The notes under the pieces are model-generated. The model was not told where the DNA came from. It saw nothing but the letters and a program-made list of their open reading frames with translations, and did not search any database. 64,000 nucleotides of DNA from Escherichia coli. Lineage in GTDB: Bacteria > Pseudomonadota > Gammaproteobacteria > Enterobacterales > Enterobacteriaceae. The stretch lies in the NCBI RefSeq assembly GCF_003991155.1, contig NZ_CP031294.1; one strand, 5' to 3'. A program made the translations under genes and the position numbers. Numbering within the stretch: the first letter of the stretch is position 1; every line of letters starts with the position of its first letter. Below, in pieces: positions 4,200 to 45,176 of this stretch.

Positions 4200-4892
4200 T
4201 TAGACCATCCCTTTCTGGTGTCTTCTTACCTGCGACCAGGCGATAAATCCAGCCACAACAATAGTGGCAATACCGAAGATGATGCGTACTGTATCCCCGC
4301 TAGAGATATGACCTTGTGCTTTATCCATAGCAGCGGAAACCTGCGGCATAACATCGGCCAGCTGCGCCAGACCAATACCTGCTGTAACAGTTGCGCCAGC
4401 GGTTTCTTTAGTTACAGGAACAGCCTTCACGGTTTTCACCGGCTTAACGACGCCAGCTCGACGCAGACCTTCCTCAATAACTTCTGCCGCATACCAGGTG
4501 TTCAGCGTTTTTAGTGGACCTCGACCATTCTCGTGGCGAATGATTGCCTCAACCAAAGGTCGAAGGATGTCGTAATCATGCAGATCGATGATCATGTCTG
4601 CGGTTACACCAACGGCTTTAGACACCTCATTAATGTAGGCGTCAGTGTTGTTTTCATTCGGCGGTGCCCAACGTTCAATAACTTCACGAATGGTATCGAT
4701 ACTTGAGCCGTCTTTTGCGCGACGTTTGTCGTGGTAGGTAATTAGAGTCACCGCCAGCGCACGAATCCCCCAAACAGGGTCTTTAAACGTGCAAAAGCGC
4801 GGTTCGTCTGGATTCGCAACCAGACCTTGCCACGGTGATCCTTTATCAAGATTACCGGGGTTATTATTACGAATGCCTCTCGGAGTCTTCAT
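4200..4892 (-). CDS. putative peptidoglycan hydrolase/endolysin with a C-terminal TM anchor
   Basis: Start moved to ATG 4892 (AGGAG 7 nt upstream). N-terminal GIRNNNPGNL motif family is seen in phage lytic enzymes. C-terminal hydrophobic helix IIFGIATIVVAGFIAW. Position lies between the holin-like gene and the spanins. Confidence 0.55.
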   Translation of the reverse strand: MKTPRGIRNNNPGNLDKGSPWQGLVANPDEPRFCTFKDPVWGIRALAVTLITYHDKRRAKDGSSIDTIREVIERWAPPNENNTDAYINEVSKAVGVTADMIIDLHDYDILRPLVEAIIRHENGRGPLKTLNTWYAAEVIEEGLRRAGVVKPVKTVKAVPVTKETAGATVTAGIGLAQLADVMPQVSAAMDKAQGHISSGDTVRIIFGIATIVVAGFIAWSQVRRHQKGMV

Positions 4893-4905
4893 CCTTGATC
4901 TCCTG

Positions 4906-5241
4906 TTATTGCAGTCCACTTTTTACGCCATACGCGGCTAACCCCAAAAGCAGTGCGGTAATAATGAACGACGTTATTTTAGAAACAATGCCGCCAAAGA
5001 ACCCACTTGAGATGGAATCTAACCGGTTAAGGAGTTTGTCCAGATTGGAGTGTTGAATACTATGTTGCGCCGGGGTCATATCACCAAAGTAGGTTTTCAG
5101 CTGATCATTGACCTCCTGGCCAATTTCTTCACGTAGCTCTTTACCTAATTTGCCAACAACCTCCCGAGCAACGATCGCGGCAATACGCTCAACTTGCTCT
5201 GTTGTAACGCCCGCCATCTCGTTCGACATGTTTTCCTCCAT
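4906..5241 (-). CDS. holin-like membrane protein (uncertain)
   Basis: 111 aa, hydrophilic N-terminal part plus a single C-terminal TM (ITSFIITALLLGLAAYGV). First gene of the lysis block. Confidence 0.35.
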   Translation of the reverse strand: MEENMSNEMAGVTTEQVERIAAIVAREVVGKLGKELREEIGQEVNDQLKTYFGDMTPAQHSIQHSNLDKLLNRLDSISSGFFGGIVSKITSFIITALLLGLAAYGVKSGLQ

Positions 5242-5290
5242 GAAAAGTCAAATCGGGATGGCGGATTTATATCACACTTCTCCTTTCAAT

Positions 5291-5316
5291 TATAGGTATA
5301 TACTTACCTACCTATG
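5291..5316 (-). promoter_or_regulatory. L-type dyad motif (TAAGTA/TACTTA family)
   Basis: ATAGGTA-n10-TACCTAT with an inner GGTATATACTTACC. The gene strand reads GGTAAGTATATACCTATAAT, upstream of 5241. Confidence 0.45.
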
Positions 5317-5431
5317 CATATACCGTTTAACGGCTGTTCAAATTCGTATCTAGTAACTCACTAATATATCCCTATGATTGCGGCTGTGAGATCGCATTTT
5401 AAACCTCACAGCCATATAAATAATGTCTAAA

Positions 5432-8400
5432 TCAGTTACTTGTTGCCCCAACAGTACCTGCAAATTTCAGCCATTGACCTGACGGACTTCTATTACTACG
5501 GTAATGATAAACGAGGATTGCGTTTGTAACTCCACCGTAGTCAGCTTTATGTGACGTTGTTAAACGAATTGTATAATCACCGTTAGGTAGATTAAAAACT
5601 TCGATTATAGATTCTGCTAATTCTACAGCACCAAATCCCGTTATATTGTTGATACTGCCAGCATTGAATCCCATAGCATCGCCAAAGCCAATCCAATAAC
5701 TTTTGCTAAACGCCCCATTTGATTTTAGGTGGCTAATGAATGTGGACAAACTCATGCCCATATCCCCACCTGAAACAGAGGAAGTTCGCACAGTCATACT
5801 TGGAAGAGCACTGCTCTTCACATAGGAACTTAGAAGGTTTGTTACCTCTGTTTTCGTATAGGCATTAAGGTTAGCCGCAGTCAAAGTAATATCGGCAGAG
5901 CCATCAAACGCCACACCAGCAATTTTCCTTGCTGTCTGCAATTTTGTGGCAGTGGCAGCATTACCAGTAGTGTTCTGATTACCGGTTGTATTCACACCAG
6001 GTATTGAATCCTTAGCGGTATATACCTGCGCCCACGCAGACCATGCCGCATCAGTGGTATCTCTTCGGGAGCGAATGAAAACCGGCGCATGTGCACCGCT
6101 CGTACCACTCCAGCCAATAAGCAACTCGCCCTCACCAGCAGCACTCGCACCTTTCATGTGCAATACGTTGCCATACGTGGTCGGGTAGCTATTGCTGTAC
6201 GCCTCGTACATTTGAATGCCAGCAGTACCTTGAGCAGAACCGCTTAACGCCGTAACTCGGCCACGAGATACCAATGTATTAATGTTGATATCGCCTGAGC
6301 CATCAAACTTAACACCATTGATGTTTCTCGCTGTTTGCAACTTCGTAGCTGTTGAAGCATTACCGTTCAAACTACCATTTACGCCACCAGTCACATTTAG
6401 TCCATTACCAATTGATACAGCACCGCTGGTATTATTAATTGTAATAGGTCGCAAACCGTTCCATGAACCTAATGTGTCTCCTGATGCTGTTAGCATGAAA
6501 TATGTGTTCGATCCATCATTACGGATAAAGAACCCAAAGCTACCGTAAGCAATGCGGAAACCATTTGCATATTTTGAAATGATCTCGCCAGAAGATGTCA
6601 AACCTCCAGATAATGTACCACCGGTAAGAGGTAATGCACCGACATCAGAGGCTGTTGGTTTGTTTTTCGTGTTATATACTCTTCGCCATCCTGGAGAATA
6701 ATCTGTGCCATTAAATACATAGATAAACTCCGCATTAGTGAGAGCACCAGAGACACTCGTCGTTGTGGCCGTTGTTATACGGATCGTATAATTGTTTGAG
6801 CTACTACCGTTATTAAATACCTCTATAACAGCTCCTGCCAATGGAATAACGCCACAACCAGTTTCACTATTTGGTATGGTTGCACTATTGGCATAGGCCC
6901 ACGCACATCGAGCAATCCATGACTTTGTGTTAAATGCTCCATTATTTTGCAATAACGTCACTAACTGTGCTGTTGTTATTGCTCCGCCATTACTTCCTGT
7001 AGTTAACCAACCAGTAGGAGATGCCGGGCAACCTATATTTGCTGGCGACAAGGAAATATTTGCCGAGCCGTCAAACGACACCCCATTAATAGTACGCGCA
7101 GTCTGCAACTTCGTAGCAGTAGCCGCGTTGCCCGTTGTATTCTGATTACCAGTCGTATTAACACCTGGCAAATTAATATTCGCAGTACCATCAAAGCTCA
7201 CGCCGCCGATAGTTCTTGCCGTCTGAAGTTTTGTAGCAGTTGCAGCATTACCAGTGGTGTTCTGATTACCCGTAGTATTTACACCTGGAAGGTTGATATT
7301 TGCAGAACCGTCGAAACCAACTCCACCGATAGATCTTGCCGTCTGCAATTTCGTGGCTGTACTTGCATTACCATTCAATGAACCAGTTAATCCACCTGTA
7401 ACAGACAACGGACCTGAAACTGTTCCTCCGGTTGTTGGCAGTGCTCCAATATCTGATGGTGTAGGTTTCTGATGTGAGCTATACATCGTATAAACAACAC
7501 CATCGGTAACGCTGGAAGGCTTACTCGCTGAATATGTTGGCGAGGTATAAATAGAAACTGTCGCATTTGCAGTACAATCCCAATGGATATTTACACGAGT
7601 CGCATAATTGCCAATCTCAACGTAAATATCATATGTATCGCCGGATGTGTTGATCCAGGCGAAATTCGTTAATCCGACAGCTGTACGCTTCCACAAAGCA
7701 CCTGTAATCCCTTTGGGGTTTCCATTGCCTGCTCGTAGAACCAGTTCTGAAATGCCTGCCTGATGTGGGGAGCCGACGTTGTAACCAGCGCCACCAATCA
7801 ATGCGATGTAAACGATGGAACTCGCTTGTGGCATGGTAACCGTAGCCAGTTTGAACCACCCTGCCCCGCCAGAGAAAGACATCGTTACTGAATTTAAAGT
7901 ACCAATATCTTTCGGCGTTAATGTGATATCCGCAGTCAGTGCTTTACCGTTAACTTTTCGGTTAGATGGCACCCTGCTATTCGCATTGTCATTGGCTGCT
8001 TTAACTGCTTTTGGCGTTGCGGCCAGCGATTCACTGGTGCTGTCGACAGCACTGCTAAGTTTCACAACACCTTTAGTTGTAAGGCTTGCGTCTTCCATCG
8101 CAACTGCACCGGCAATCTCTTCAGCACGATCAGCAGCAGCTTCCGCACGGGTCGCAGCGGATTCAGCAGCAGTTTTGCTCTGAGATGCTGCCGTCGCACT
8201 GCCTGCCGCCTCTGTTGCTTTCGTGGATGCCGTCGTGGCACTGCCCTTCGCTGCTGACGCCTGTCTGGTCGCCTCATCTTTTGAAGCAGACGCAGATGAT
8301 GCCGATGACGCCGCCGAACTGGCGGACGATGCGGCAGCCGTTTTTGAGGATTCTGCGCTGGTTTCCGACGCTTTCGCGTTCGTTTCGGATGTCTTCGCTG

Positions 8401-31945: not shown

Positions 31946-32002
31946 GCCTGCTTCCGTATATATTTAATAAGTTACTTATTATTTATATATACAGATGCAG
32001 GT
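31946..32002. repeat. 57-bp inverted-repeat element, copy 1
   Basis: Arms GCCTGCTTCCGTATATA / TATATACAGATGCAGGT (14/17 complementary) around an AT-rich spacer that holds the palindrome AATAAGT-T-ACTTATT. The left arm is identical to copy 2 at 62239. Confidence 0.8.
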
Positions 32003-32301: not shown

Positions 32302-33192
32302 TTATGCCGGTAAAGCAATTTCTAACGGTTTATCCAAAGGTTGTTTGTCGAATGCCAGCAGTGGCAGCGTGTCAGGCAGTCGACGGCCAAAGTCAGGGTT
32401 TCGGTACACACCATACAACGGAGACGTAAAGCTCAGGTTGTGAATGTCCTTGAGCAGCTTCACAATGCTGGCCTCGTCCACCAGACTGTCGGCAATGTCC
32501 TGAATCGTCGTGCCACGATTCCGCCCAGCTTTTGCCAGGGAACTGTTCTTATGGTAGTCCGCCACCAAATCGCGCAGCGCACGGCGACGACGAGACTCGC
32601 TCATAGCGAACAACTCTTTGACGATCGCCTCGTTATCACCCGGGTCGGAGCGGAAATGGCGCTGGAACACACGCAGTGCACTTTCATAGCTCTTCGGTCG
32701 CTCAGGGCGGATGAACTTAAACCCTGCTTTCATGGCGAAGGGATTGTATTTGCTCATCGAGGACTGGATCTCAATGATTGGCCGGTCATGCATCCTGCTA
32801 ACCAGGTTAATCATTCTATAAGAGACGCCTACGCCACGATACTGAGTATCCACAACTGAGCGACTGATCACCGCAAAGTTGTTATTCACGTACCGACCCC
32901 AGTACTGGTTAGCCACGGTGGTATTAGTGGTTGGTTTCAACTTAGGAAACATGCGGTGGCGAGGTGCCAACAGTAGTTTCGGGTAAGCCATAACCACGAC
33001 GCCCACCAGACGGTCATCAAGTTCGCAGCGATAGTAAGTTGGCGCGAAAGGTTTGCCGTCTGTTTTGTAGTGAAGCGACTTAAGAGCGTGCCAGTCCTCT
33101 ACAGTTCCCTTTGTAACAGTCATTCGCTCCAGAAAGTCCAGATGACGCGGAAACTCTTCAGGGCGGTAGCGTTTAATGATGATGTCCGTCAT
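32302..33192 (-). CDS. GNAT-fold acyltransferase fused to an uncharacterised C-terminal domain (operon gene 4)
   Basis: 296 aa. GNAT motif A-like VVDTQYRGVGVSYRMINL. ATGA overlap with the upstream ATPase gene. Confidence 0.6.
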   Translation of the reverse strand: MTDIIIKRYRPEEFPRHLDFLERMTVTKGTVEDWHALKSLHYKTDGKPFAPTYYRCELDDRLVGVVVMAYPKLLLAPRHRMFPKLKPTTNTTVANQYWGRYVNNNFAVISRSVVDTQYRGVGVSYRMINLVSRMHDRPIIEIQSSMSKYNPFAMKAGFKFIRPERPKSYESALRVFQRHFRSDPGDNEAIVKELFAMSESRRRRALRDLVADYHKNSSLAKAGRNRGTTIQDIADSLVDEASIVKLLKDIHNLSFTSPLYGVYRNPDFGRRLPDTLPLLAFDKQPLDKPLEIALPA

Positions 33193-33854
33193 GAATGGAC
33201 CTCATCATGACTACCATTGTGATATTCCACCTTCACGCGTTCTTTGTAGTGCTTGGTGATCTGCATATCAGGGCGCAGCGCGTTCTTCAGGTCTTCGTGA
33301 GTCGTCGCCACCATTACCGTCGCACCAACCTTTCGAGCGGCACGCTGGAGGTTAGACGCCACAACCTGAGCGGTTACACGGTCGAGAACAGCGCCGAACT
33401 CGTCAGCAGCCCATACTTTAGCGCCTGACTCAATCAGTTTGGCAATCTTGAGACGATATTTCTGGCCGTCTGACATTTCAGAAGGCTTGCGAACAAACAG
33501 ATATGCATCGTTCAGACCAGCCATAGATAACAACCCAAGCGCATCACTGGTCGTTTTGCCCAACTGATCGATGACGTTAACCTCATTATCGAAGGTAAAA
33601 TCATCGATGGAGGCTACAGACAGCCCTTCATCCTTCATCTGTCGTTGCAACTCGCGCAGCACAACGGATTTGCCGGAACCGGATTGGCCGGTGATGTACA
33701 CCACATCGCCCTGCTTCACTTCCAGCTCCAGATTGTCGTAAAGCGTCCACTCTTTTTCGTCCAGGCCAAGCCCGAACGACTCAGCGATTTCCAACGTGCG
33801 CGTGGTTTTATTTACGCGTGTCTGAAACGATACGTTGATGATGTATTTGCTCAT
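33189..33854 (-). CDS. soluble ABC-type ATPase (operon gene 3)
   Basis: 221 aa. Walker A GQSGSGKS, signature-like MSDGQKYRL, Walker B VWAADEFGAVLD, H-loop TTHE. No membrane partner. Confidence 0.8.
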   Translation of the reverse strand: MSKYIINVSFQTRVNKTTRTLEIAESFGLGLDEKEWTLYDNLELEVKQGDVVYITGQSGSGKSVVLRELQRQMKDEGLSVASIDDFTFDNEVNVIDQLGKTTSDALGLLSMAGLNDAYLFVRKPSEMSDGQKYRLKIAKLIESGAKVWAADEFGAVLDRVTAQVVASNLQRAARKVGATVMVATTHEDLKNALRPDMQITKHYKERVKVEYHNGSHDEVHS

Positions 33855-34519
33855 GCAGCCATCTCCCCGGAAGAGATCTTCTCCGCATATGCCACAAATG
33901 CGTCTACCCCGCTTTCTCCCGTCATTTCTTCCATATGGGCAAGCAAATCACCAACAACAATGGCAGAGCCAGCAGGGAGCGTTTTAAAGCCCAATACGTC
34001 GACAACACGTACTTCTTCCGCTGCAACTTCACGACTGATCTCGGTGTGTTCATCCTTCTGTCGTTTAGTTTCTTCGCCAAGATCGATAACTAGCGAGTCG
34101 GTGTCCATTTCTTCTGTCATACTGCCAACGAGAACATTCAACTCACGCTCTTCAAAGCCGAAAACCTCGATATCGTCCAGAACAAGCGACTCAAGCTCTT
34201 TCTGTAGCTTAATTGCATCGTAATCAATGCTGGCAAGTCGGTTATCTTCAAGGCGCTTCGCACGAACCTCGTCATCACTGAGATCATCGCGAACAATAAC
34301 CGGTACGCGCTCAAGTCCAGCAAAAATTGCAGCCTCACGGCGGCCGTGGCCAGTAATAATTACGTCGTTCTTATCGACCGTAATTGGCTGGTCAAATCCG
34401 CGCTTTTTAATGGCTGCGGCTAGATCTCGGATCTGCTGTTCATCATGCTTTTTGGCATTCATCTCATAGGGAATAAGATCTGCCGGGTCGCGATATACGA
34501 TTTCAAACTTTTTGGTCAT
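33851..34519 (-). CDS. ParB/Srx-like nuclease-domain protein 2 (operon gene 2)
   Basis: Start set to ATG 34519 (AAGGAG 8 nt upstream, TAATG overlap). The motif IITGHGRREAA is the ParB-box-like GxxRxxA. Acidic C-terminal half. Confidence 0.7.
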   Translation of the reverse strand: MTKKFEIVYRDPADLIPYEMNAKKHDEQQIRDLAAAIKKRGFDQPITVDKNDVIITGHGRREAAIFAGLERVPVIVRDDLSDDEVRAKRLEDNRLASIDYDAIKLQKELESLVLDDIEVFGFEERELNVLVGSMTEEMDTDSLVIDLGEETKRQKDEHTEISREVAAEEVRVVDVLGFKTLPAGSAIVVGDLLAHMEEMTGESGVDAFVAYAEKISSGEMAA

Positions 34520-35199
34520 TACATACGCTCCTTGTAGTAGTCGACCAGCCACACCAGAGCCTCACCAGCGTTCTCCATTTCATTACCGGTGTTAATAGCC
34601 TGCTCTTTGATGATGTTTTTTATGGTTTCTGCAACACGATCTGACGCATCGAAAGTTACTTTGAAGCGCATGGTCTGATGTTCCGCACCCACACGTTCGG
34701 TTTTCTCTCGTTTGTCGGTATCGACAGGCTCATCACTACCACGAGACAACGCCTCCAGTGCTTCAAGGTCGATTGCCGCCTCTTTTGCTAAAACCATCGA
34801 GATTTCGTCGTCATACGGAGCGATTTCAGACAGTTGATAGTCAAGTTCTGACTGAATTTCTTCAATGAAGCGTTGCAATGCGATTTGGTCGTCTTCACCG
34901 TATCGCTCGTTGTCCACCAGTGACATCTGTTTAGCTACGACATCGCTAATTTTGCCCACAGAAAGCACCGGAACCGTTGAAATTCCTTGCTCAATAGCAG
35001 CACGCCAGCGATGTTCGCCGCCGAGGATTTCAAAAAATCCATCTTCAAGTTCACGAGCCAAAATTGGCTTAAAAAAGCCCAATTTTTCGATAGAACCTTT
35101 CAGTTTTTCAAAATTCTGCGCACCAACCGAATTGGTGTTCCAGGTATTCGGGCGAAGGTTGGCAACATCAACCTGCAAAATCGTGATTTTTACATCCAT
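34519..35199 (-). CDS. ParB/Srx-like nuclease-domain protein 1 (operon gene 1)
   Basis: The motif ILGGEHRWRAA is the ParB GERRxRA box. The start could be ATG 35199 or GTG 35217, and neither has a strong SD. Confidence 0.7.
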   Translation of the reverse strand: MDVKITILQVDVANLRPNTWNTNSVGAQNFEKLKGSIEKLGFFKPILARELEDGFFEILGGEHRWRAAIEQGISTVPVLSVGKISDVVAKQMSLVDNERYGEDDQIALQRFIEEIQSELDYQLSEIAPYDDEISMVLAKEAAIDLEALEALSRGSDEPVDTDKREKTERVGAEHQTMRFKVTFDASDRVAETIKNIIKEQAINTGNEMENAGEALVWLVDYYKERM

Positions 35200-35281: not shown

Positions 35282-36841
35282 ATGACTGTTCGGATTGTAT
35301 CTAACGCAGTAAATGCGCTTATTTCTGGCGCAGATGACAAGGTAAAGCAACTGGTGCAGCAAATGTTGAGCTACGAAGTCGAGACTGGCGACTGGAAGGG
35401 CACAAGCACGATGTTCAACTGGAGTAAAAACTCGTTCCCTGCTGGCTTTGCCAAGCCTGTAGCGGCGAACTTGAACAAGGCGGGCATCAAATGTGTTCAT
35501 ATCCGCAAAGACAAAGCCCCGGCGCTTGGTAAACCAAATCCTGCGGTTAACCCATTCCCATACAATCCTGATTATGCGTATCAGGATCAGACTGTGGAAA
35601 CACTGGTTCGAGAGGGAATGATGATTGCGCAGATCGCTACTGGTGGCGGGAAATCTAACGTTGCCTGCAAAGCAGCTGCACGTATCGGTCGAATGACATT
35701 ATTTTTAACAACCCGCTCTGTTCTGATGTTTCAAATGGCCGAAAACTTCCAGAGATCCATCGACTACCGCGCCGAAAATGGCGAACCGTGGTTAAAAGAC
35801 CAAAAGGTTGGAGTCATTGGCTCGGGTGAGTTCCAGGTATCACGACATATCAACGTCGCTACAGTTCAAACTCTTGCAAGTTTCCTCGAAGAACCACCAC
35901 GCGATGCAACACCAGATAAGAAAAGCTACCACCTCAAACGTCGGGAGTTGGTGAAACGCTTCCTTTCAAGTGTCTCTCTTCTTATTCTGGAAGAGGCGCA
36001 TGAGTCTTCAGGCTCAAATTTCTATGACATCGCCAGATTATGTGTGAACGCAGACTATCGTCTGGCGCTTACAGCCACGCCGTTCATGAAGGATTCGACG
36101 GAAGCCAACATGCGCCTGATGGCGGTGGCCGGGCGAATTGAAATTAAAGTCACAGAAAAGTACCTGATTGATCGAGGCATTCTGGCAAAGCCGTACTTCC
36201 TTTATCATAAAGTTGCCTACAAGCCAGACGAGGCCAGAATCAAGGCCGAACTTGCCAACAAACACCTCAATTTTAGAGTTGGTATGAGCACCGCCTACCA
36301 AAAGGCTTATCAGTTGGGGATCGTGTATAATTTGGGACGTAACGAGGCCATAGTGCGCGAGGCATTGCTTTATAAGCAACATTCACTCAACTGCATGACT
36401 CTGGTTCGTCTTAAACGCCACGGGCAAATCCTGATGGAGATGATGAAGGAGTCAGGTCTTAAAGTTGATTTCATCTATGGGGAATCTAACCAGACGACAA
36501 GGCAAGCAAAGCTGAATAGTTTAGCGTCTGGTGAAATAGATGTTTTAATAGGCTCGACTATTCTGGATGTTGGTGTTGATGTGCCAAGCGTTGGTGCGGT
36601 CATTCTTGCTGGTGGTGGGAAAGCAGAAGTTGAAATGAGACAGCGTGTCGGTCGTGGCTTACGAGCCAAAAAAAATCAGGCAAACGTGTGTTTTATCACC
36701 GATTTCATTGACATTAGCAACAAATACCTGTTGTCTCACTCTTATGAGCGAAAACACATCATCGACACCACACCTGGCTTTGCAGAAGGTGTATTGCCTA
36801 TTGATGGAGCATTCGATTTTGGAGTTCTGAAACGAGATTAG
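35282..36841 (+). CDS. SF2 DEAD/DEAH-like helicase (type III restriction Res-like fold)
   Basis: 519 aa. Motif I ATGGGKSNV, motif II LILEEAHES, motif VI QRVGRGLR. Confidence 0.85.
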   Translation: MTVRIVSNAVNALISGADDKVKQLVQQMLSYEVETGDWKGTSTMFNWSKNSFPAGFAKPVAANLNKAGIKCVHIRKDKAPALGKPNPAVNPFPYNPDYAYQDQTVETLVREGMMIAQIATGGGKSNVACKAAARIGRMTLFLTTRSVLMFQMAENFQRSIDYRAENGEPWLKDQKVGVIGSGEFQVSRHINVATVQTLASFLEEPPRDATPDKKSYHLKRRELVKRFLSSVSLLILEEAHESSGSNFYDIARLCVNADYRLALTATPFMKDSTEANMRLMAVAGRIEIKVTEKYLIDRGILAKPYFLYHKVAYKPDEARIKAELANKHLNFRVGMSTAYQKAYQLGIVYNLGRNEAIVREALLYKQHSLNCMTLVRLKRHGQILMEMMKESGLKVDFIYGESNQTTRQAKLNSLASGEIDVLIGSTILDVGVDVPSVGAVILAGGGKAEVEMRQRVGRGLRAKKNQANVCFITDFIDISNKYLLSHSYERKHIIDTTPGFAEGVLPIDGAFDFGVLKRD

Positions 36842-37148: not shown

Positions 37149-37613
37149 ATGAAGTCTCCCATACTGTTCACTTTCTGTTCTAAAACTATCATGAAATACT
37201 CGCTTCTCCCTCTACTAACGTTACCAGTGTTGATGCTTGCCGCGTGCCAATCACACCCAATATCAATCCATGACGCCAAACCAGCACCGCAGGCCAAAGT
37301 GTTCAAGTATCAAAGCGCAGCGCCAGCTACGTTGGTGGTAATGAGAGACACAGGTTTTGTAGGAGCTGGATGTGATGCTTCCATTTTCATCAACGGCGAA
37401 ACTGTCGCAAAACTGGCTACAGGCGAAAAAGCGACTTTCCATTTAAATGCCGGAGAATTAATTGTGGGTGCATCTCTTGAAGGTGCAGGTTTATGTGCTC
37501 TAAACCCCGCTCGTCAAGAGCGAGAAACGACTCTGAAGAATGGAGACACAAAAGCGTTCAGGGTGTTTACCAGCAATTCTGGTGACATCGACATTCTGCC
37601 AACAACTCTGTGA
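37149..37613 (+). CDS. lipoprotein (possible surface/exclusion function)
   Basis: Signal with lipobox LMLAA|C (..LLPLLTLPVLMLAAC). RBS GGGAGA 5 nt upstream. An alternative start lies at 37191. Confidence 0.65.
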   Translation: MKSPILFTFCSKTIMKYSLLPLLTLPVLMLAACQSHPISIHDAKPAPQAKVFKYQSAAPATLVVMRDTGFVGAGCDASIFINGETVAKLATGEKATFHLNAGELIVGASLEGAGLCALNPARQERETTLKNGDTKAFRVFTSNSGDIDILPTTL

Positions 37614-37617
37614 TGAC

Positions 37618-38142
37618 ATGACAACCAAAGATATTACCTACGGTATCCAAGCTGAACTCTGGCCGCGAGATTACACTAACGTTGAAAAACTACTGATGTT
37701 CTGGCGCAGAGAACAAATTCCTGTAAGGGTCACTCTCGAAGATGGCCAGGCGTTTTGCATGTACGTTTATGGCCTCATGCCATCTCGTAACAAAGTTGAC
37801 CTTTGCCCAGCCCCTTTTGACAAAGAAAATCGTATAAGGCTCCCACTTGAACGCATTAGTACAATTGAATCAGGTGTGGTTGACAGTATCGCTCACGATT
37901 TCAAAGGTCGACTAACAGTTCACCCTGATTATGTCGATAATCGGCCATCACGCCGCGATTTTTTTGCAATTTGCAACCAAGCCTACAAAGCAAACAAATC
38001 TATAAGGGTGTACATGGCGGATGGCCGTGAAATTGAGGGGGTGTCAGCAGGCGCAGATGCTTGTCAGGTTACACTACGTGTCGAGAACGGTAGAAAAATA
38101 GTTGTTTTGTTCGATTGGGTTGAACGAATTTTGCCTTTTTGA
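37618..38142 (+). CDS. hypothetical protein with two Rof-like/Sm-like repeats (tentative)
   Basis: Start set to ATG 37618, 4 nt after the upstream stop. Two segments fit the pattern (I/V)xVxxxDGxxxxGxxxxxxxxxxVxLxxxxxxxxxxLxxIxxI. The Rof assignment comes from memory and is weak. Confidence 0.4.
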   Translation: MTTKDITYGIQAELWPRDYTNVEKLLMFWRREQIPVRVTLEDGQAFCMYVYGLMPSRNKVDLCPAPFDKENRIRLPLERISTIESGVVDSIAHDFKGRLTVHPDYVDNRPSRRDFFAICNQAYKANKSIRVYMADGREIEGVSAGADACQVTLRVENGRKIVVLFDWVERILPF

Positions 38143-38738: not shown

Positions 38739-39389
38739 ATGGCTAACATTATCATTTCTAAAAAATCCATCATTGAAGCTGCTTCCATTGTATCCGATGA
38801 ACTGCGCGAAAAAGCAGATCTGGCAACTCAAACATATAACGAACATTATAAAAATGGTACGCACACTAAAGCAGACAAAGCAAATATGCAAGCTGCGACC
38901 ACTAAACTTGCTTACTTCATCAACAACGTCGTAAACGCAGTAGAAGACGAAAAATTATGCTCTGTTTTCTACTATGCGATTAAAGCAAGCAAACAAGCGC
39001 CAGAAGTATTTTTCCGTGATGCAATGACTAATAGTTATTCTCTGGAAAAACTGGTTTATCTGGTTAAATCAATTAAATCTGGTAAATGCGTTTATTCCAT
39101 CGCTGATATGTCTGGATCTCGTGTATTCGCTTTAATCGATATGATTAACGACGAGATCGACACGTTCACTAATGGCGCTGTTTTCGATTTAATGAATGAA
39201 GCTAAAAAAGCGTGTGAAATTAAATTGGACGCTGGTTATACTCAAGCCAACCAGTTGATCAATCTTTGCGAACGTCTTGGACTTGTTGAAAAAGTCAAAG
39301 GAGCTGGGAGCGCGAAAGCTGGTACTCAGCAATATCGCTTCATTAAAAATGATTTCTACAATTATTTAGCTGATGCTTTCAAAGCGTAA
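38739..39389 (+). CDS. hypothetical protein (216 aa), possible C-terminal wHTH
   Basis: AT-rich gene with codon usage different from its neighbours. RBS AAGGAAAAA. Confidence 0.6.
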   Translation: MANIIISKKSIIEAASIVSDELREKADLATQTYNEHYKNGTHTKADKANMQAATTKLAYFINNVVNAVEDEKLCSVFYYAIKASKQAPEVFFRDAMTNSYSLEKLVYLVKSIKSGKCVYSIADMSGSRVFALIDMINDEIDTFTNGAVFDLMNEAKKACEIKLDAGYTQANQLINLCERLGLVEKVKGAGSAKAGTQQYRFIKNDFYNYLADAFKA

Positions 39390-39892: not shown

Positions 39893-39897
39893 AATCG

Positions 39898-39922
39898 AGC
39901 GCCCACTATGGGCGCTTTTTTC
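39898..39922 (+). terminator. rho-independent terminator
   Basis: AGCGCCC-actat-GGGCGCT followed by TTTTTT. Confidence 0.8.
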
Positions 39923-39940
39923 GTTTCCAATACTTCCACA

Positions 39941-40087
39941 ATAACGCGCCATTGATGGCGCGTTTTTTATTGTCTTTAACTCACTCCAACAACATAAAAA
40001 TAAGCGCCAAAATAACGCCATAAACGCGCTTTTATATCCTTACCAGTACATACCCATTACTTAACACATTAACGCGCTTAAAACGCG
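39941..40087. repeat. cluster of ATAA(N)CGC(G/C) repeats, including three tandem 11-mers
   Basis: aaATAAGCGCC/aaaATAACGCC/ATAAACGCGC at 39998-40029. Further copies at 39941, 40068 and 40078. Confidence 0.6.
39943..39969 (+). terminator. second tandem terminator
   Basis: AACGCGCCA-ttga-TGGCGCGTT followed by TTTTAT. Confidence 0.7.
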
Positions 40088-40210
40088 TTATATTGCGCTA
40101 TAGCGTATGGTTAATCATTGGCTTTTAGTCTTGCTATGTGATCCGCGTTTATTTGTCGGCGCGGATCGGCATTTTGTTTTGTTCCGTATCCGCTCGCGTA
40201 TTATGTGCGC

Positions 40211-40256
40211 GTGATTTTTCACATAATCACACCACTTAATCACGTATGTGATTATG
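40211..40256. repeat. operator-like set of four GTGATT/AATCAC hexamers
   Basis: GTGATT(40211) AATCAC(40225) AATCAC(40238) GTGATT(40248). The outer 9-bp inverted repeat is CATAATCAC/GTGATTATG. A GATC-bearing inverted repeat GATCCGCG-n12-CGCGGATC lies nearby at 40140-40167. Confidence 0.55.
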
Positions 40257-40380
40257 CTACGAAAGAAATCTGGATGTCTCAGGCGACGAAAGTCATCATA
40301 ATTTTCCCCGCTCGCCTGTCCGACAACCGCTGGTTGGATTCCACCAGCTTCCCGATGTTTTTTTCTACATAAAGGCGAAT

Positions 40381-40500
40381 GCAGCCGTTTCCCGAAAAAA
40401 TCCTGGCCGTTTCCCGTCGGCTCATGAATACGTTCCTCGCCGTTTCTGAAAATTTCCCTGCGGCAGCTGGTGGCTATAGAGAAAGGGCCGTTTCTGGCCC
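40381..40500 (+). repeat. iteron-like array A (core GTTTCCC / CCGTTTC)
   Basis: aGCCGTTTCCCGaaaa, gGCCGTTTCCCGtcgg, aCGTTCCTCG, CCGTTTCTGaaaa, TTTCCCTGcgg and gGCCGTTTCTGG. The first copies are spaced 22 bp apart. Confidence 0.6.
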
Positions 40501-40509
40501 TCTTCTCAG

Positions 40510-40992
40510 TTACACGCCATCAAGGATGTGGATGCGGTTGCTTGCGTATACATTCAGCATAAAGTTAGCGCAAAACAGTTTCCATGTATCAACGCCAGCG
40601 GTATACGTAATGTTTTTGCATTTAATCGCATTGTTGGCGATCCGCATCCCCTGCGATACTGCTTCATCGTCGGAAAATTTGAACGACGATTGAGTTTTAA
40701 TCCAGACAGAAATCTGCGTAGCGAACTCAATCAGCTTGGACTGGCAGAATCGCCCGGAGCGCACCGGAAAGACGAACGTTCCGAATCCAGAATTTACCAC
40801 ATATGCTTTCTCAAATACCCGCGAGTAACGACGATTGCCAATGATGTCGCGTGCAATAATGCATTTTTCTTGTGCTGACAGTTCTACCGTCTCATTGTCG
40901 CGCCATGCACCAAGTACTCGTTTTTCAATGTCAGAGAACGTTACAGCGATATTGCCATGTGCGGGTGCGTTTACAGTAGCGATAAAATTCAT
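40510..40992 (-). CDS. hypothetical protein (160 aa)
   Basis: ORF preceded by an E-type module and RBS AAGGAA. Flanked by iteron arrays. Confidence 0.6.
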   Translation of the reverse strand: MNFIATVNAPAHGNIAVTFSDIEKRVLGAWRDNETVELSAQEKCIIARDIIGNRRYSRVFEKAYVVNSGFGTFVFPVRSGRFCQSKLIEFATQISVWIKTQSSFKFSDDEAVSQGMRIANNAIKCKNITYTAGVDTWKLFCANFMLNVYASNRIHILDGV

Positions 40993-41010
40993 GATTAATT
41001 CCTTATCGTA

Positions 41011-41046
41011 AATAACAAATTGTTTTCTTGTTGGTGTTAATTATCG
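41011..41046 (-). promoter_or_regulatory. E-type promoter/leader module
   Basis: The gene strand reads CGATAATTAACACCAACAAGAAAACAATTTGTTATT...AAGGAATTAATC-ATG. Confidence 0.55.
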
Positions 41047-41077
41047 TTGTACGAATAAGGCGTCAAAGTGGAAAGTT

Positions 41078-41160
41078 GCGGTAGCCGGACGGGAACAGGT
41101 GGGTTTGTCGGTTGCCTGGAGGTAAGAGGTTGGTGTTTTTAGCCTGCGGGAAACAGGATG
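41078..41160. repeat. about 70-nt module (copy A of a duplicated segment) with two inverted GTT(T)CCCG cores
   Basis: gCGGTAGCCggaCGGGAACAGGTGGGTttgTCGGTtGCCTGgaggtaAGAGGTTGGTgTTTTT aligns at about 75% by eye with 44712-44790. CGGGAACAGG and CGGGAAACAGG are reverse complements of the iteron core. Confidence 0.55.
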
Positions 41161-41167
41161 GTCATTT

Positions 41168-41191
41168 AAGGCCACCAGCATTGGTGGCCTT
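41168..41191 (-). terminator. 10-bp-stem hairpin containing a Chi octamer
   Basis: AAGGCCACCA-gcat-TGGTGGCCTT lies just downstream of the stop at 41197. It contains CCACCAGC. Confidence 0.55.
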
Positions 41192-41196
41192 AATCT

Positions 41197-41478
41197 TTAG
41201 TGGAGCAGACCGATGTCGATGGTATCCCCTGAATCATCCACACGGATCATCAGCATGGCAAAGGCGTTTAGTGGATAGCTTGCGTGCCATTCAGGGAAGC
41301 GGTCATCTCGCATGAAGTCGGCAATGTCGTAAACGCATCCCTCAAAGTGGAAGAATCGCGTGCTTACCTGCTCGTCATAATCCACATGATCCATTTCTTG
41401 CTGTTCTGTTTCCGGCAAGTCCAGCCATGATTCAAGAAATACATTTTGTGCTTTAGGGGTAATGGTGAAATCAGTCAT
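41197..41478 (-). CDS. hypothetical acidic protein (93 aa)
   Basis: Trimmed to ATG 41478 (GAGGA 8 nt upstream), because the E-type module lies inside the longer ORF-track call. Confidence 0.6.
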   Translation of the reverse strand: MTDFTITPKAQNVFLESWLDLPETEQQEMDHVDYDEQVSTRFFHFEGCVYDIADFMRDDRFPEWHASYPLNAFAMLMIRVDDSGDTIDIGLLH

Positions 41479-41497
41479 GAGCATATCCTCACTGCGT

Positions 41498-41530
41498 AAA
41501 CATGTTGTTTTCTTGTTGGTGTAATTATCG
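41498..41530 (-). promoter_or_regulatory. E-type promoter/leader module
   Basis: The gene strand reads cTGCGATAATTACACCAACAAGAAAACAACATGTTTAC (extended -10 TGcGATAAT). Confidence 0.55.
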
Positions 41531-41638
41531 CAGTGTAGATAAGGCATAAAAGAAGTTAATACAGGCTGAATACACAAGAAAGGTTCTGGAAGTTGATAGC
41601 CAGGTTTCAAACTAACCTTCGGTTATTAAAAGTCATTT

Positions 41639-41662
41639 AAGACCACCAATGCTGGTGGCCTT
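41639..41662 (-). terminator. hairpin, sequence-related to 41168-41191, containing a Chi octamer
   Basis: AAGACCACCA-atgc-TGGTGGCCTT. It contains GCTGGTGG. Confidence 0.5.
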
Positions 41663-41667
41663 AATAA

Positions 41668-41811
41668 TTATCGCCCGATTACGCTAAGGATCTTTTCCTC
41701 AACTGATTTGTTGTTGCGACTAAACTGCCTTGCGTATCTGATGACAGAAGAGGCGTTTTGCTTTCTGACCATCTCGGCTCTTTCCTTCAGGCGTTTCTTG
41801 AAATCGCCCAT
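41668..41811 (-). CDS. small basic ORF (47 aa), below the ORF-track cutoff
   Basis: MGDFKKRLKERAEMVRKQNASSVIRYARQFSRNNKSVEEKILSVIGR. The ATG lies 2 nt after the stop of 41814..42188, so the two are coupled. Confidence 0.35.
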   Translation of the reverse strand: MGDFKKRLKERAEMVRKQNASSVIRYARQFSRNNKSVEEKILSVIGR

Positions 41812-41813
41812 AT

Positions 41814-42188
41814 TTACCACCAGGCGCAGAAGGTCAGTCTGTTATTGTGAAAGTCGTGGTTCTTAATCAGATCTTCCACAAGCTCTTTCAACTCCCCCAC
41901 ATCATGCCAGTAACCTTCATCGTACTCCTGACTGCCGAAGAAAAAACCTTCCCGGGTAGGCAAGTACTCTTCGCAATTACTTTCGTTTATGTGCATCAAA
42001 TGAGCCTTCAGAAAACAAATGTCATTCATCGTTAATTCTAAAAGCTCACAATTTTCGACTTCACCTACGTTGCGCTCCATCCACCCAACGAGCGCATTGA
42101 ACTTACGGAAGTAAGCAACCTGCTTTCTGGATGCCTCGTTATTCAGATCGTTTTTAGGCTGTGTCTCGATATAGATATCAAGTCCCAT
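41814..42188 (-). CDS. hypothetical protein (124 aa)
   Basis: Trimmed to ATG 42188 (AAGGAAACC upstream): MGLDIYIETQPK... Confidence 0.55.
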   Translation of the reverse strand: MGLDIYIETQPKNDLNNEASRKQVAYFRKFNALVGWMERNVGEVENCELLELTMNDICFLKAHLMHINESNCEEYLPTREGFFFGSQEYDEGYWHDVGELKELVEDLIKNHDFHNNRLTFCAWW

Positions 42189-42244
42189 GATGGTTTCCTT
42201 ATTAAGTTGCTTCAGTGAAATCATTTTCACAAATCAGATAAGGC

Positions 42245-42261
42245 AGAAAACAAATTGTTAT
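42245..42261. promoter_or_regulatory. E-type palindrome core (opposite orientation)
   Basis: AGAAAACAAATTGTTAT on the plus strand. The flank AAGGCAGAAAAC resembles 46311-46335. Confidence 0.4.
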
Positions 42262-42305
42262 CGGGCATAAGAAAATGGCGCGGTTTACGCGCCATTCAAA
42301 GAGGA

Positions 42306-42701
42306 TTAAGCGAATACGCTTTCAGGGATTAAGGTGTCAGCAGGAATGCCGGAGGTAATGCGCAGGCCGTACTGACCAATCCAGGTAGTGTTGGTATTCA
42401 GGCTGGAGGCGAATACGGTGTTAACCATATTCATCATGGTTTCAAACACCTCTTCATCAACCTGGCGGAAGTAGTTCTCGATTTTCAGCAGCAGCGGGTC
42501 AGTTGCATCGAAAATAGACTGGTATTGAGTCGCGTACTCGCCGCCGGAGGCATCACCTTTACGCACGATCGTACTGGCCTGGACTTCGGCACCAGTTTCG
42601 GTGTTGTACGTAACAACGGTGATTTTTGCCACATTCTTACCTTCGGCGGTTTCAGAGGCATAGTAAACATCAACTGTCAGTTTTTCGCGTTTAACGGTCA
42701 T
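42306..42701 (-). CDS. hypothetical protein (131 aa), highly expressed look
   Basis: Trimmed to ATG 42701 (GGAGAGTGAA upstream). Preceded by an L-type dyad and an upstream terminator. Confidence 0.6.
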   Translation of the reverse strand: MTVKREKLTVDVYYASETAEGKNVAKITVVTYNTETGAEVQASTIVRKGDASGGEYATQYQSIFDATDPLLLKIENYFRQVDEEVFETMMNMVNTVFASSLNTNTTWIGQYGLRITSGIPADTLIPESVFA

Positions 42702-42744
42702 TTCACTCTCCGTAGTGTTTTGGTTATTTTTATATTCTATGATC

Positions 42745-42760
42745 GTAAGTATGTACTTAC
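42745..42760. promoter_or_regulatory. L-type dyad motif
   Basis: GTAAGTA-tg-TACTTAC. Confidence 0.45.
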
Positions 42761-42763
42761 AAT

Positions 42764-42793
42764 ACAAAAAAGCCCCGTAAGGATGGCGGGGCT
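42764..42793 (-). terminator. rho-independent terminator
   Basis: AGCCCCG-n9-CGGGGCT followed by TTTTTTG on the minus strand. Confidence 0.75.
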
Positions 42794-42827
42794 GTCGTAC
42801 TGTCGACTAATTACCACTTGCACATTA

Positions 42828-43139
42828 TCAGGCTATTGCCATCACTGATGCTCTCTGAATCTCTTGCTGGGCCACGCGGTTAACTTCCATCAAAGCCAGT
42901 TCGAGCTGATGTTCCGGCCACATTCTTTGAAATGCCACCCAGCCTTTTCCACGCTGGCGACGAACATTCATTACATAACGAGTAAAGGTGTATTTATCGA
43001 AAGACACCGCTGTTTCACGGAACAGACGAATAGAGGTTCCATTGGCAACGATGTCCAGCAAAGTTAATTGAGCAACCAGCGCAGGCTTCTCTTTTCTCTT
43101 CTGGTCTTTGTCCAGACCAAGAACCAATGATTTTTTCAT
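42828..43139 (-). CDS. hypothetical protein (103 aa)
   Basis: Trimmed to ATG 43139 (ACGGAG upstream): MKKSLVLGLDKDQKRKEKPALVAQL... Confidence 0.55.
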   Translation of the reverse strand: MKKSLVLGLDKDQKRKEKPALVAQLTLLDIVANGTSIRLFRETAVSFDKYTFTRYVMNVRRQRGKGWVAFQRMWPEHQLELALMEVNRVAQQEIQRASVMAIA

Positions 43140-43150
43140 CACAACTCCGT

Positions 43151-43185
43151 AAACAACTTGTTTTCTCAATGGCGTAAATAATACC
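43151..43185 (-). promoter_or_regulatory. E-type promoter/leader module
   Basis: The gene strand reads GGTATTATTTACGCCATTGAGAAAACAAGTTGTTTACGGAG. Confidence 0.55.
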
Positions 43186-43292
43186 AGTAAGAAAACGGCT
43201 ACAAAGCATATTGATCAGGTGCATGAGCGATATGCAGGTTCTTCCCTGCGGCTATAGAGAAATTAAGCCAGCATTGCTGGCTTTGGTTAGGT

Positions 43293-43622
43293 TTACTCGA
43301 ATACTTCAAGAAACTCCTGAACGTCCCAATGCTGGACAAGGTGAAGATAGACCTTAGAAATAACATCATTCTCGCTATCGCATGTGAAGTAGTACTTCTG
43401 GCTGCGGTTGTATGTGTCCACACAAAATTCGCTCATATCCATAAAGTCAGCATCTTCACCCATGTCGCAAATCATCAAAGCAGGTGCGTCATCACGAGTC
43501 ATCAGCTCAAGCACCCACCGCGAATTGATCAGAGTGGAAGACCAACCTTCTAACTCATAAAACTGATCAAACTCTTTTTGAGTTAATTTCTTGATTTGGT
43601 TGATGTCGATATTTGCAAACAT
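43293..43622 (-). CDS. hypothetical acidic protein (109 aa)
   Basis: Trimmed to ATG 43622 (AAGGA 7 nt upstream): MFANIDINQIKKL... Confidence 0.55.
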   Translation of the reverse strand: MFANIDINQIKKLTQKEFDQFYELEGWSSTLINSRWVLELMTRDDAPALMICDMGEDADFMDMSEFCVDTYNRSQKYYFTCDSENDVISKVYLHLVQHWDVQEFLEVFE

Positions 43623-43634
43623 AAAGCAATCCTT

Positions 43635-43667
43635 AAACAACATGTTTTCTTGATGGTGTTATTATCG
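43635..43667 (-). promoter_or_regulatory. E-type promoter/leader module
   Basis: The gene strand reads TGCGATAATAACACCATCAAGAAAACATGTTGTTTAAGGA. Confidence 0.55.
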
Positions 43668-43985
43668 CAATAACGCACAGGTGAAAAAGGATTTTATTCC
43701 GGTGAATGTGGTTTTGGCAGTGAGTTTTCAGGTTCAGTACCGAGTACACTTTTTACATTATTCTGATTTAGTGGCCGAAGGTGGCTGGTGGGCAGAATAA
43801 TCCTCTCCCCGAAAACCTACTGAAATCGATTGTGACCCGTTGGCTGTCTGGCACAATTACGCTGTAACTGGGCATTCAGAGGGAATCCAGCGGTAAGTAA
43901 GTTCGCCTGCACGTGAGCGCCTCTCTTCTTCCCGCACATTACAGGTGGGTAGCCGCAACTCTCCCTCTCGCTATACCGGTACGCC

Positions 43986-44121
43986 GCCGTTCCTGAACCG
44001 GCATCGAGCCTTCTCCCGAAATCCACACAGGCAACTCGACCGTTTCCCTGAAAACCTCCAGCCGTTCCCCGAAGGCAACCCAGCCGTTTCTGTAGCGGGA
44101 TGCAACCTTTTCCCTGTATGG
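43986..44121 (+). repeat. iteron-like array B: six direct repeats at about 22-bp phasing
   Basis: GCCGTTCCTGAAcc, gCCTTCTCCCGAAAtcc, gaCCGTTTCCCTGAAAAcc, aGCCGTTCCCCGAAgg, aGCCGTTTCTGtagc and aaCCTTTTCCCTGtat. Starts at 43986, 44008, 44039, 44061, 44083 and 44105. Confidence 0.7.
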
Positions 44122-44175
44122 ACCGAAGGCTGACCGTAGGGGTGTTACGGGGGATAAAATCAGGAGTTGAATAAA

Positions 44176-44203
44176 TACGAAAAAGGAGGCGACACCCCTC
44201 CTT
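44176..44203 (-). terminator. rho-independent terminator ending the non-coding unit
   Basis: Minus strand: AAGGAGG-ggtgtcg-CCTCCTT followed by TTTCGTATTT. Confidence 0.7.
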
Positions 44204-45035
44204 CTCTCCCCACTTATACATACCTGGCTTCTTCGCTATACATGTTGTGTTTTATTCGTGTTTTATCTGTCTCAACCTCTCTATGGACGTTAATACTCAC
44301 TCCTTCCAGAACGTTCTATACGGCGACTAATTCTGTTGGTGAATTGGGTGTGTTGTTCTCTCTGTCGGTGTATGTGGTTTCGTTCGTTTTGCGGTGGTTC
44401 TTCTATGGGGTGTTCTCGTCGTTTTGGTGATTGTTCTTCTCCGTGTATGGAGTAATGGCAGGTGGGCGATTCCTTTCGTTATTGTGTTTGAGTTGTTTGT
44501 CTGGAGTGCGTGAAGGGCTTTTGTAGTTATTCGTGTGTTGGGTAATGGCGTTTCCCGTGATTGTTCTGTTTCGTGTCTTTTGGGATTGAGAGAAACCTTG
44601 CGGTTACAGGCTTCGTTGGGGTTTCAGTGATTCTGGTGTTTCTTCGCTGTTTGGGTAATGGCGTGTCGTGGGTATCGCGCGTATGGAAGTTTCGAATTGC
44701 CTGTGAAAGTTAGGTTGGTTGTCCGGTAGCCTGAGAAGAAGAGGTGGGTCTTTTCGGTAGCCTGCCATAAAGAGGTTGGTTGTTTTTGGTAATGGCATAT
44801 GTGTTATTTAGTTGTTTTGTTATGCCTGAAAATAAGTTGTTTATATGGTTATGTAACGCAACGGGAACGATTTTGAGCGTGTGTTTTTGTTGGTAGTGTG
44901 TTGGGTCGTCTGTGGTGAAAATTGGACGCTGTGGCGCTGTCTGCTGCGTAGAATTACGGGTATAAGCAGTGATGTGTGAAAACGTCAATTTTTTAGACCA
45001 AATCGGGTGAAAGCGTTGATGTTTCGTTGATCTGT
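44204..45035 (-). ncRNA. candidate about 830-850-nt A/C-rich non-coding transcript
   Basis: Bounded by an E-type module variant (45041-45069) and a terminator (44176-44203). The plus strand is about 70% G+T by eye, so the RNA would be A/C-rich and G-poor. No ORF has an SD. Internal degenerate repeats are present. Confidence 0.4.
44452..44796. repeat. dispersed GGTAATGGC repeats within degenerate 90-130-nt units, plus copy B of the 70-nt module
   Basis: G(G/A)GTAATGGC at 44452, 44541, 44654 and 44788. GTGATT(G/C)T.. recurs three times. 44549-44557 carries a GTTTCCCG core. 44712-44790 aligns with 41078-41150. Confidence 0.6.
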
Positions 45036-45040
45036 TATTC

Positions 45041-45069
45041 AGTTGTTTTCTTATTGGTATAAACAACTG
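45041..45069 (-). promoter_or_regulatory. E-type module variant with a split palindrome
   Basis: CAGTTGTTT-tcttattggtat-AAACAACTG (9-bp perfect inverted repeat). It shares TTGTTTTCTTATTGG with 59088-59119. No CDS follows. Confidence 0.4.
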
Positions 45070-45176
45070 TAACCTATTGATATTTAAGGATGTGATTCCA
45101 GGCATGGAAGGGGAGTAGTGGCGATCAACGGATTCTTATAGAAAAGAATCAAATTGTGACCGCCATTATCAATGTT

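Follow-up and report, generated by a model that had tools for sequence, protein, structure and literature searches.

In phage T4, the origin oriE joins an early promoter to evenly spaced 12-nt iterons whose role is still undefined (PMC3016281). Direct repeats about two helical turns apart are also the building blocks of RepA-type iterons (P1 oriR/incA, F incB/incC, R6K gamma, pPS10), and direct-repeat arrays make up type Ib centromeres (TP228 parH/ParG, pSM19035 parS/omega), in which a low-copy element encodes a small ParA and a ribbon-helix-helix partner. Repressor operators provide a further precedent: those of the P2 C repressor are direct repeats two helical turns apart, and lambda OL/OR and 186 FL/FR are flanking or looping operator sets. 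Here we describe two arrays of phased direct repeats, A and B, that can be compared with each of these systems. They lie in a 64,000-nt stretch of Escherichia coli DNA (RefSeq assembly GCF_003991155.1, contig NZ_CP031294.1; hereafter, the window), which belongs to a phage-plasmid of the SSU5/pHCM2/pLF82 type. The reading that we favour, tentatively and as a possibility short of an even chance, is that the arrays are putative iteron-like sites for the phage-mode (lytic) replication of this element, or for the control of that replication.

The window carries genes for tail, head and terminase proteins, along with a ParA operon and numerous small genes annotated without a function. Its first base is base 32001 of the record NZ_OW849379.1 (the window spans bases 32001-96000), which is plasmid P2 of E. 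coli isolate 162, a non-mobilizable IncFIB plasmid of 110,667 bp. The 5.5 kb around the arrays are 100% identical to this plasmid and 98% identical to pLF82 (i.e. phage Cyrano). The SSU5-type family has matches in about 770-830 PLSDB records, occurs in 242 of the 5,426 complete E. coli genomes, and includes Salmonella Typhi pHCM2 and part of Yersinia pestis pMT1. In the literature that we searched, we found no description of arrays A and B, nor of an SSU5-type lytic origin, centromere or early-gene control, and the arrays appear to be undescribed. In kind they would be familiar, resembling the phased repeat arrays to which proteins bind. The arrays and the isolated copies of their core are as follows:

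43987-44114, plus strand: array B, six core copies starting at 43987, 44009, 44040, 44062, 44084 and 44106 (22, 31, 22, 22 and 22 bp apart)
40385-40448, plus strand: array A, core CCGTTTC(C/T)(C/G) in three strong copies starting at 40385, 40407 and 40440 (22 and 33 bp apart)
about 40453 (segment 40453-40508): weak array A copy, TTTCCCTGCGG
40466-40473: conserved Chi sequence within array A
40476-40508, minus strand: terminator of a gene for a 160-aa protein, with a weaker core copy in its loop (40488-40496)
41090-41098 and 41148-41156, minus strand: inverted core copies CCTGTTCCCG and CCTGTTTCCCG, with a terminator (41166-41193) on one side and the 160-aa gene's promoter module on the other
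44547-44556, plus strand: lone core match GGCGTTTCCC (copy at 44550) inside a compositionally skewed non-coding region, with a position-weight matrix (PWM) score below 9

Every sequence feature listed in the initial annotation of this DNA was recovered to within a few bases, and the spacings between the six copies of array B measured exactly as it had described them. For array A it had counted six copies; the first two are indeed 22 bp apart and further copies follow, but only three are strong and the rest are weaker. Both of the inverted cores it had noticed are real, each sitting within a ~30-bp CGGTAGCC...AGGTGGGT repeat, and the copy at 41148-41156 was found again in five of the six relatives scanned. 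The extra core that it had placed at 44549 exists as a match but is isolated, and is probably a chance match.

The motif had been given as GTTTCCC(G). While its clustering and phasing hold, the bare heptamer GTTTCCC is not enriched across the window (9 matches against 7.2 expected). The informative core is longer: GCCGTTYCY matches the window eight times against 1.72 expected, a count that none of 100 shuffles reached, and seven of these eight matches fall in the arrays, every one on the plus strand (A, 40385-40496; B, 43987-44114). The signal is therefore this longer core together with its clustering and phasing, rather than the heptamer originally named. A de novo k-mer repeat scan was too noisy inside coding sequence. 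We also built a PWM from the nine strong array copies and scanned it over the whole 110.7-kb plasmid. The array copies, which are the matrix's own source, scored 15.7-22, the best score outside the arrays was 12.4, and no further cluster of the motif was found anywhere on the plasmid. Within the arrays, the copies are two or three helical turns apart (22, 31 or 33 bp), on one face of the helix, and so have the form of iterons, i.e. helically phased tandem direct repeats with units of about 17-22 bp.

To see how widely this arrangement is kept, we surveyed spacing at about 70 loci (six fetched relatives, the prototype phage SSU5 and 63 IMG/VR loci). The strand and the order of the arrays are constant across these loci, and the 22-bp spacing was counted 151 times. 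The recurrent patterns are (28),22,31,22,22,22 for array B and 22,33/34,46-48 for array A. Phage SSU5 and pHCM2 have the same architecture as the window, and Y. pestis pMT1 has array A only. The distance from A to B, which is the length of the gene island between them, ranges from 1.5 to 4.3 kb among relatives because the genes between the arrays differ. The two non-coding regions align at 66-78% identity among elements of E. coli, Salmonella (including pHCM2), Enterobacter, Citrobacter and Klebsiella. Within them the cores are at least 90% conserved and the spacers are variable (20 distinct B and 43 distinct A sequences); the first two array A copies are identical in 43 of 43 distinct A sequences.

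These data bear on whether the arrays have any present function, or are instead decaying, left over from an old tandem duplication or a lost replicon and retained by linkage. Copy number and spacing do drift in distant relatives, array B has been lost in pMT1, and no partner protein was found beyond a candidate, as would be expected of a relic. However, between the window and a Salmonella relative, core identity is 46/54 (85%) and spacer identity 43/74 (58%; Fisher p = 0.001), and the phasing is retained across E. coli, Salmonella, Enterobacter and Salmonella phage SSU5. Moreover, a distant relative in which the neighbouring protein is only 53% identical still keeps the core GCCGTTTC, with spacings of 24/12 and 26/10/24. 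In a rearranged Serratia element, two B copies remain, 22 bp apart. We consider a relic quite improbable. Together, the spacing and core conservation confirm the observation and indicate that the arrays are under selection, with the cores, as far as the alignments tell, being the part that is selectively maintained.

The arrays are also confined to one family of elements. A synthetic consensus query matched only the SSU5/pHCM2 family: every plasmid match came from this family's host genera, the plasmid matches listed were mostly ~95-120 kb, the size of the family's members, and the plasmid-collection search found the motif array absent from other plasmid families. Among the complete E. coli genomes, all 244 matches were plasmid-borne, with no array on a chromosome. 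In IMG/VR, 63 of 66 matches were SSU5-like. The other three have no protein in common with the plasmid and were taken as chance.

The immediate surroundings of the arrays contain the following features:

39897-40380: conserved non-coding stretch left of array A
39897-39917 and 39943-39964, plus strand: two tandem terminators, 46 bp apart, at the start of this 480-bp conserved stretch
39998-40029: AACGCGCC-type 11-mers
40140-40167: GATC inverted repeat
40211-40256: GTGATT/AATCAC hexamers
44180-44206, minus strand: strong intrinsic terminator, shielding array B from minus-strand transcription

Array A occupies a 620-bp conserved gap between convergent genes, with several terminators on both strands. 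Each array is directly downstream of intrinsic terminators, terminators flank both, and the gaps in which the arrays sit are predicted to be transcriptionally insulated. The repeat families reported upstream of array A (39998-40256) are present in the window and conserved only in part: the AT-rich 11-mers, ~350 bp left of the array, are partly conserved, and only this lineage has the GATC inverted repeat's right arm and the set of GTGATT/AATCAC hexamers. At 39894-39978, Rfam gave sub-threshold matches only (Hrs1, suhB, isrK), and a small RNA may be encoded there.

If the repeats worked in a transcript, for instance as a protein sponge with minus-strand GGGAAAC motifs, one would point to the minus-strand copies, which read (C/U)GGGAAACGG and contain GGA, and to the long non-coding unit that array B adjoins. 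But both arrays are downstream of intrinsic terminators and their spacing keeps DNA helical phase. Rfam returned nothing above the gathering score for the arrays, and consensus folding (alifold) gave no covariation beyond a terminator hairpin (covariation term +0.28 for B and -0.93 for A), the hairpin at 40476-40508 being the sole well-supported structure in array A. An RNA-level element is thus very improbable in our estimation, and the arrays would act as DNA rather than as structured RNA. Because the copies are helically phased, the cores are conserved over the spacers, the gaps are insulated and no RNA structure is conserved, we read the arrays as likely protein-binding sites. To this extent the initial interpretation, of phased iteron-like arrays of the protein-binding type, holds up. 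The two concrete candidates that it offered, Rep iterons and ParG sites, do not.

Could the arrays serve the plasmid's own IncFIB RepA, as its iterons or as copy-control (incA-like) sites? RepA-type iterons do typically have a 22-bp period, and, as in RepA-type replicons, one element carries two arrays that are insulated from transcription and could pair (handcuffing). The absence of a Rep gene from the window had been correctly noted: repA is at bases 1-1056 of the record, ~35 kb from the arrays. Unlike in RepA-type replicons, there is no Rep gene between or beside the arrays, and no Rep family was recognised among the genes flanking them. The element's RepA iterons are instead located elsewhere: the repeats downstream of repA are of the ATCCACTGTAGTGAG type, exact 7-mers of which recur in the 743-bp gap before repA, and they share nothing with the array motif GCCGTTTCCC. 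Unlike in RepA-type iterons, moreover, the conserved core makes up only ~9-12 bp of each 22-bp unit, and inspection by eye revealed no conserved DnaA box. With no adjacent Rep, and no conserved DnaA box seen by eye, the arrays do not qualify as a RepA-type origin. We conclude that they are not part of the RepA (IncFIB) plasmid replicon, and of all the explanations considered here, RepA sites are the most improbable.

The second candidate, a centromere of the ParG type, involves two operons of the element:

1250-2277 (with upstream sequence to 2470), minus strand: ParA/ParG-like operon, encoding a Pfam-supported ParA of 222 aa (1609-2277) and a 117-aa partner
33189-35199, minus strand: operon for a pair of ParB_N-domain proteins plus a small ABC/SMC-like ATPase, oriented divergently from the UvsW-like helicase gene

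The first of these operons is real, and the element shares with type Ib systems its direct-repeat arrays, its low-copy state, and a small ParA with a ribbon-helix-helix-like partner; the 117-aa protein, which had no family match, reads from its sequence alone as a basic tail plus a ribbon-helix-helix. However, the 105 bp upstream of parA, which are near-invariant in pHCM2 and a Klebsiella relative, carry a different block, CCTACCATTTCACCTTTACACC. Made up of NxAC tetramers repeating every 8 bp, as in the sites of ParG-type proteins, this block does not resemble the array core and is probably a ParG-type operator or centromere itself. The PWM scan found the array motif absent from the par locus, its conserved control region included, and no large repeat array was found near the par operon, from which the arrays are ~38 kb away. 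Because they are not at the par operon and their motif is not common to it, the arrays do not match a type Ib centromere.

This leaves an accessory centromere, far from the par operon, with either the ParG-like ribbon-helix-helix protein or the ParB_N-domain pair as its binder. Such an arrangement has a precedent in the phage-plasmid N15, whose centromeres are dispersed and far from its par genes. The type Ib-like ParA and its partner are present, their operon has no large array alongside, and the arrays, like most centromeres, are shielded from transcription. In addition, the two ParB_N-domain proteins and their ABC ATPase are encoded 5 kb from array A. Set against this is the fact that parA has its own conserved NxAC block upstream, with the array motif missing from the locus. 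Ribbon-helix-helix centromeres (TP228, pSM19035, R1) usually have subsites of 4-10 bp with periods of 7-11 bp, and the 22-bp period and the core length of the arrays are atypical for such sites; ParB-type parS sites, for their part, are usually palindromic. Furthermore, region A but not region B is found in 55 of 55 Y. pestis pMT1 records of the plasmid collection, all of which persist as plasmids. Since pMT1, which replicates as a plasmid, has lost both array B and the skewed non-coding unit beside it, both are dispensable for plasmid maintenance. On balance we think an accessory centromere unlikely. The ParB_N/ABC ATPase operon is kept in all of the relatives examined, pMT1 included.

We also considered whether the arrays serve the genes that they bracket:

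40510-43643, minus strand: six-gene island between arrays A and B; the genes are small, and every one has a promoter/operator module and a terminator of its own
2314, 31872/31897, 41014, 41499, 42245 (minus strand), 43152, 43636, 45037, 46271, 46318 (minus strand), 59089 and 59818: modules containing the palindrome AACAAnTTGTTTTCT

The gene content of the island varies between relatives. None of its six genes has a significant Pfam or NCBIfam match, and all belong to PHROG families of unknown function. The promoter/5' module with the palindrome AACAAnTTGTTTTCT is found at at least 12 promoters in the window, including those of parA and of every island gene. Scanning for AACAAnTTGTTTTCT with up to three mismatches gave 36 matches against 12.4 expected, seven of them perfect. 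This module is probably the operator set of a global repressor, a system apart from the arrays.

A family-specific regulator bound to both arrays and to the two inverted copies might loop out or insulate this early-gene island, silencing it in lysogeny or blocking read-through into or out of it. Looping of this kind is known from lambda, where CI loops OL to OR across the immunity region, and the P2 C repressor binds direct repeats with the same separation of two helical turns. The arrays resemble these operators, and those of 186, in being non-palindromic repeats 22 bp from centre to centre, in two sets that flank a block of genes. In every relative they flank the island in one and the same orientation, although its content varies. 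Each follows directly upon terminators, and the two inverted copies, of which the one at 41148-41156 recurs in relatives, lie a short way upstream of the 160-aa gene's promoter module. Unlike the P2 C, lambda and 186 operators, however, the arrays overlap no promoter, the nearest B copy being ~265 bp from the next promoter-like site. The island promoters already have the palindromic AACAAnTTGTTTTCT module, which seems to be their true operator. Nor does the 160-aa neighbour of array A supply an obvious regulator: its model (pLDDT 81.5) gave no structural match and no recognisable DNA-binding fold. We regard looping or insulation as doubtful, ranking it behind phage-mode replication and ahead of an accessory centromere.

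Phage-mode replication draws on four further features, two of them beside the arrays:

44207-45075, minus strand: non-coding unit of ~0.85 kb directed towards array B, with a promoter/operator module at 45037-45075 and the terminator at 44180-44206
38739-39389, plus strand: 216-aa protein, encoded 1 kb left of array A, candidate array binder
35282-36841 of the window: UvsW-like helicase
4284-5357 and 6631-7659 of locus L003, on the plasmid outside the window: RecA/UvsX-like protein and gp32-like single-strand-binding protein

Besides those at repA, arrays A and B are the only iteron-like arrays on the element. As the only phased repeat clusters other than the RepA iterons, they are therefore the most obvious places to seek a cis-acting function of this sort. 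A lytic origin at the helicase-primase module was set aside, as that module has no repeat array. The loss of array B and the skewed unit from pMT1, which is maintained as a plasmid, also fits a role in the phage mode. The closest described counterpart is T4 oriE, with which the arrays share several properties. They are evenly spaced direct repeats in a phage early region, are syntenic in relatives, and adjoin small early genes and an early-type transcript, whose promoter we infer from the shared module; in both cases the role and the binding protein of the repeats are undefined. As in T4, the element encodes gp32-, UvsX- and UvsW-like proteins, in addition to a DnaB-like helicase, a primase and a Pol III alpha subunit. 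The set of gp32-like, RecA/UvsX-like and UvsW-like proteins suggests T4-style recombination-dependent replication. Unlike in T4 oriE, the period is 22 bp instead of 12 nt, there are two arrays 1.5-4.3 kb apart, and there is no sequence similarity.

The non-coding unit beside array B is strikingly asymmetric. Its minus strand is 39% A, 29% C, 15% G and 16.5% T (the plus strand is 69% G+T), and this asymmetry is conserved in relatives, with no conserved open reading frame. The unit would be transcribed from its copy of the shared promoter module. An RNA of this composition would be C-rich, G-poor and unstructured (Rho-loading-like). A Frpo/ssi-type single-strand promoter was considered for the skewed region and rejected, since the DNA folds of 44700-45090 barely beat shuffles (z = -1.56, -1.72).

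In the mechanism that we envisage, a protein specific to the SSU5/pHCM2 family would bind the arrays along one face of the DNA and multimerise along each of them, and A and B may then pair. A promoter-driven non-coding transcript of 0.85 kb would end at array B, an arrangement comparable to the early transcript and iterons of oriE. The candidate for the binding protein is the 216-aa protein, and it is a candidate and nothing more. Its model (pLDDT 79) has a helical N-terminal part and a C-terminal winged helix; its family, which contains no informative Pfam domain, is tiny (23 cluster representatives among 1.84 billion proteins) and occurs in this family of elements only. A more specific version of the proposal holds that array A, array B and the 0.85-kb C+A-rich transcript together form the phage-mode origin of the SSU5/pHCM2/pMT1 family, fired by the 216-aa protein as initiator with the transcript as activator or primer. 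This version we judge unlikely.

Several observations weigh against phage-mode replication. Array A lies in a gap of convergent transcription, which is unusual for an origin, and inspection by eye of its aligned flank, made without a pattern scan, revealed no conserved DnaA box or clear unwinding element. The cumulative GC skew has no origin signal and the keto skew is likewise uninformative, because skew follows gene orientation. The core is short (~9-12 bp), and copy number (2-7) and spacing vary in distant relatives. Lastly, the initiator among the element's proteins is so far a modelled candidate: the winged-helix matches of the 216-aa protein are weak and generic (best Foldseek E = 0.0095, TM ~0.3), and no plasmid Rep structure was named among the 50 Foldseek matches listed for it.

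If the arrays do form a lytic origin, the element would have two iteron origins unrelated to each other, that of RepA for the plasmid state and a second one, and would switch from one to the other. Identification of the binding protein would provide a way into the plasmid-phage switch, and possibly a tool for curing or incompatibility. If the arrays are only regulatory, the finding is of local interest. As for packaging, a pac site is unlikely here, with terS/terL 8.5-12 kb away.

Part of the skewed unit has relatives on quite different plasmids. The stretch 44724-45058 is ~70% identical to a non-coding stretch next to psiA (locus L085, 5001-5356), and this psiA-adjacent relative occurs in ~100 Klebsiella IncFIB plasmids of ~200 kb. 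Genes of the DUF1380 and DUF4942 families, which are families of conjugative-plasmid leading regions, are found nearby in relatives of the window. This region of the phage-plasmid therefore resembles the leading ("establishment") region of a conjugative plasmid.

Other repeats are found in and around the island. Two or three copies each of a ~30-bp repeat, CGGTAGCCTG-N8-AGAGGTGGGT, lie on the plus strand at 41076-41168 and 44720-44786; the copy at 41078 holds GCGGTAGC, which we take to be the RfaH ops core, on the strand opposite to local transcription. The terminator hairpins of neighbouring small genes at 41166-41193 and 41637-41664 are near-copies of each other, oppositely oriented (28 nt, 96% complementary). 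Opposed hairpins of this kind, along with the shared promoter modules, may drive the shuffling of cassettes in the island. Chi (GCTGGTGG) occurs 15 times in the window against 1.4 expected, on the minus strand below ~33 kb and mostly on the plus strand at 36-48 kb. Several copies are within terminator hairpins (examples of Chi positions are 40466, 41172 on the minus strand, 41651 and 43784), and the copy in array A is retained by most relatives. Finally, a 200-aa protein encoded at 37540-38142 (plus strand) matches the Pfam family Flag1_repress (FljA, the phase-1 flagellin repressor; E = 2.5e-84) and also has a faint Hfq-like match; judging by this similarity, it may be a moron that acts on host flagellin expression.

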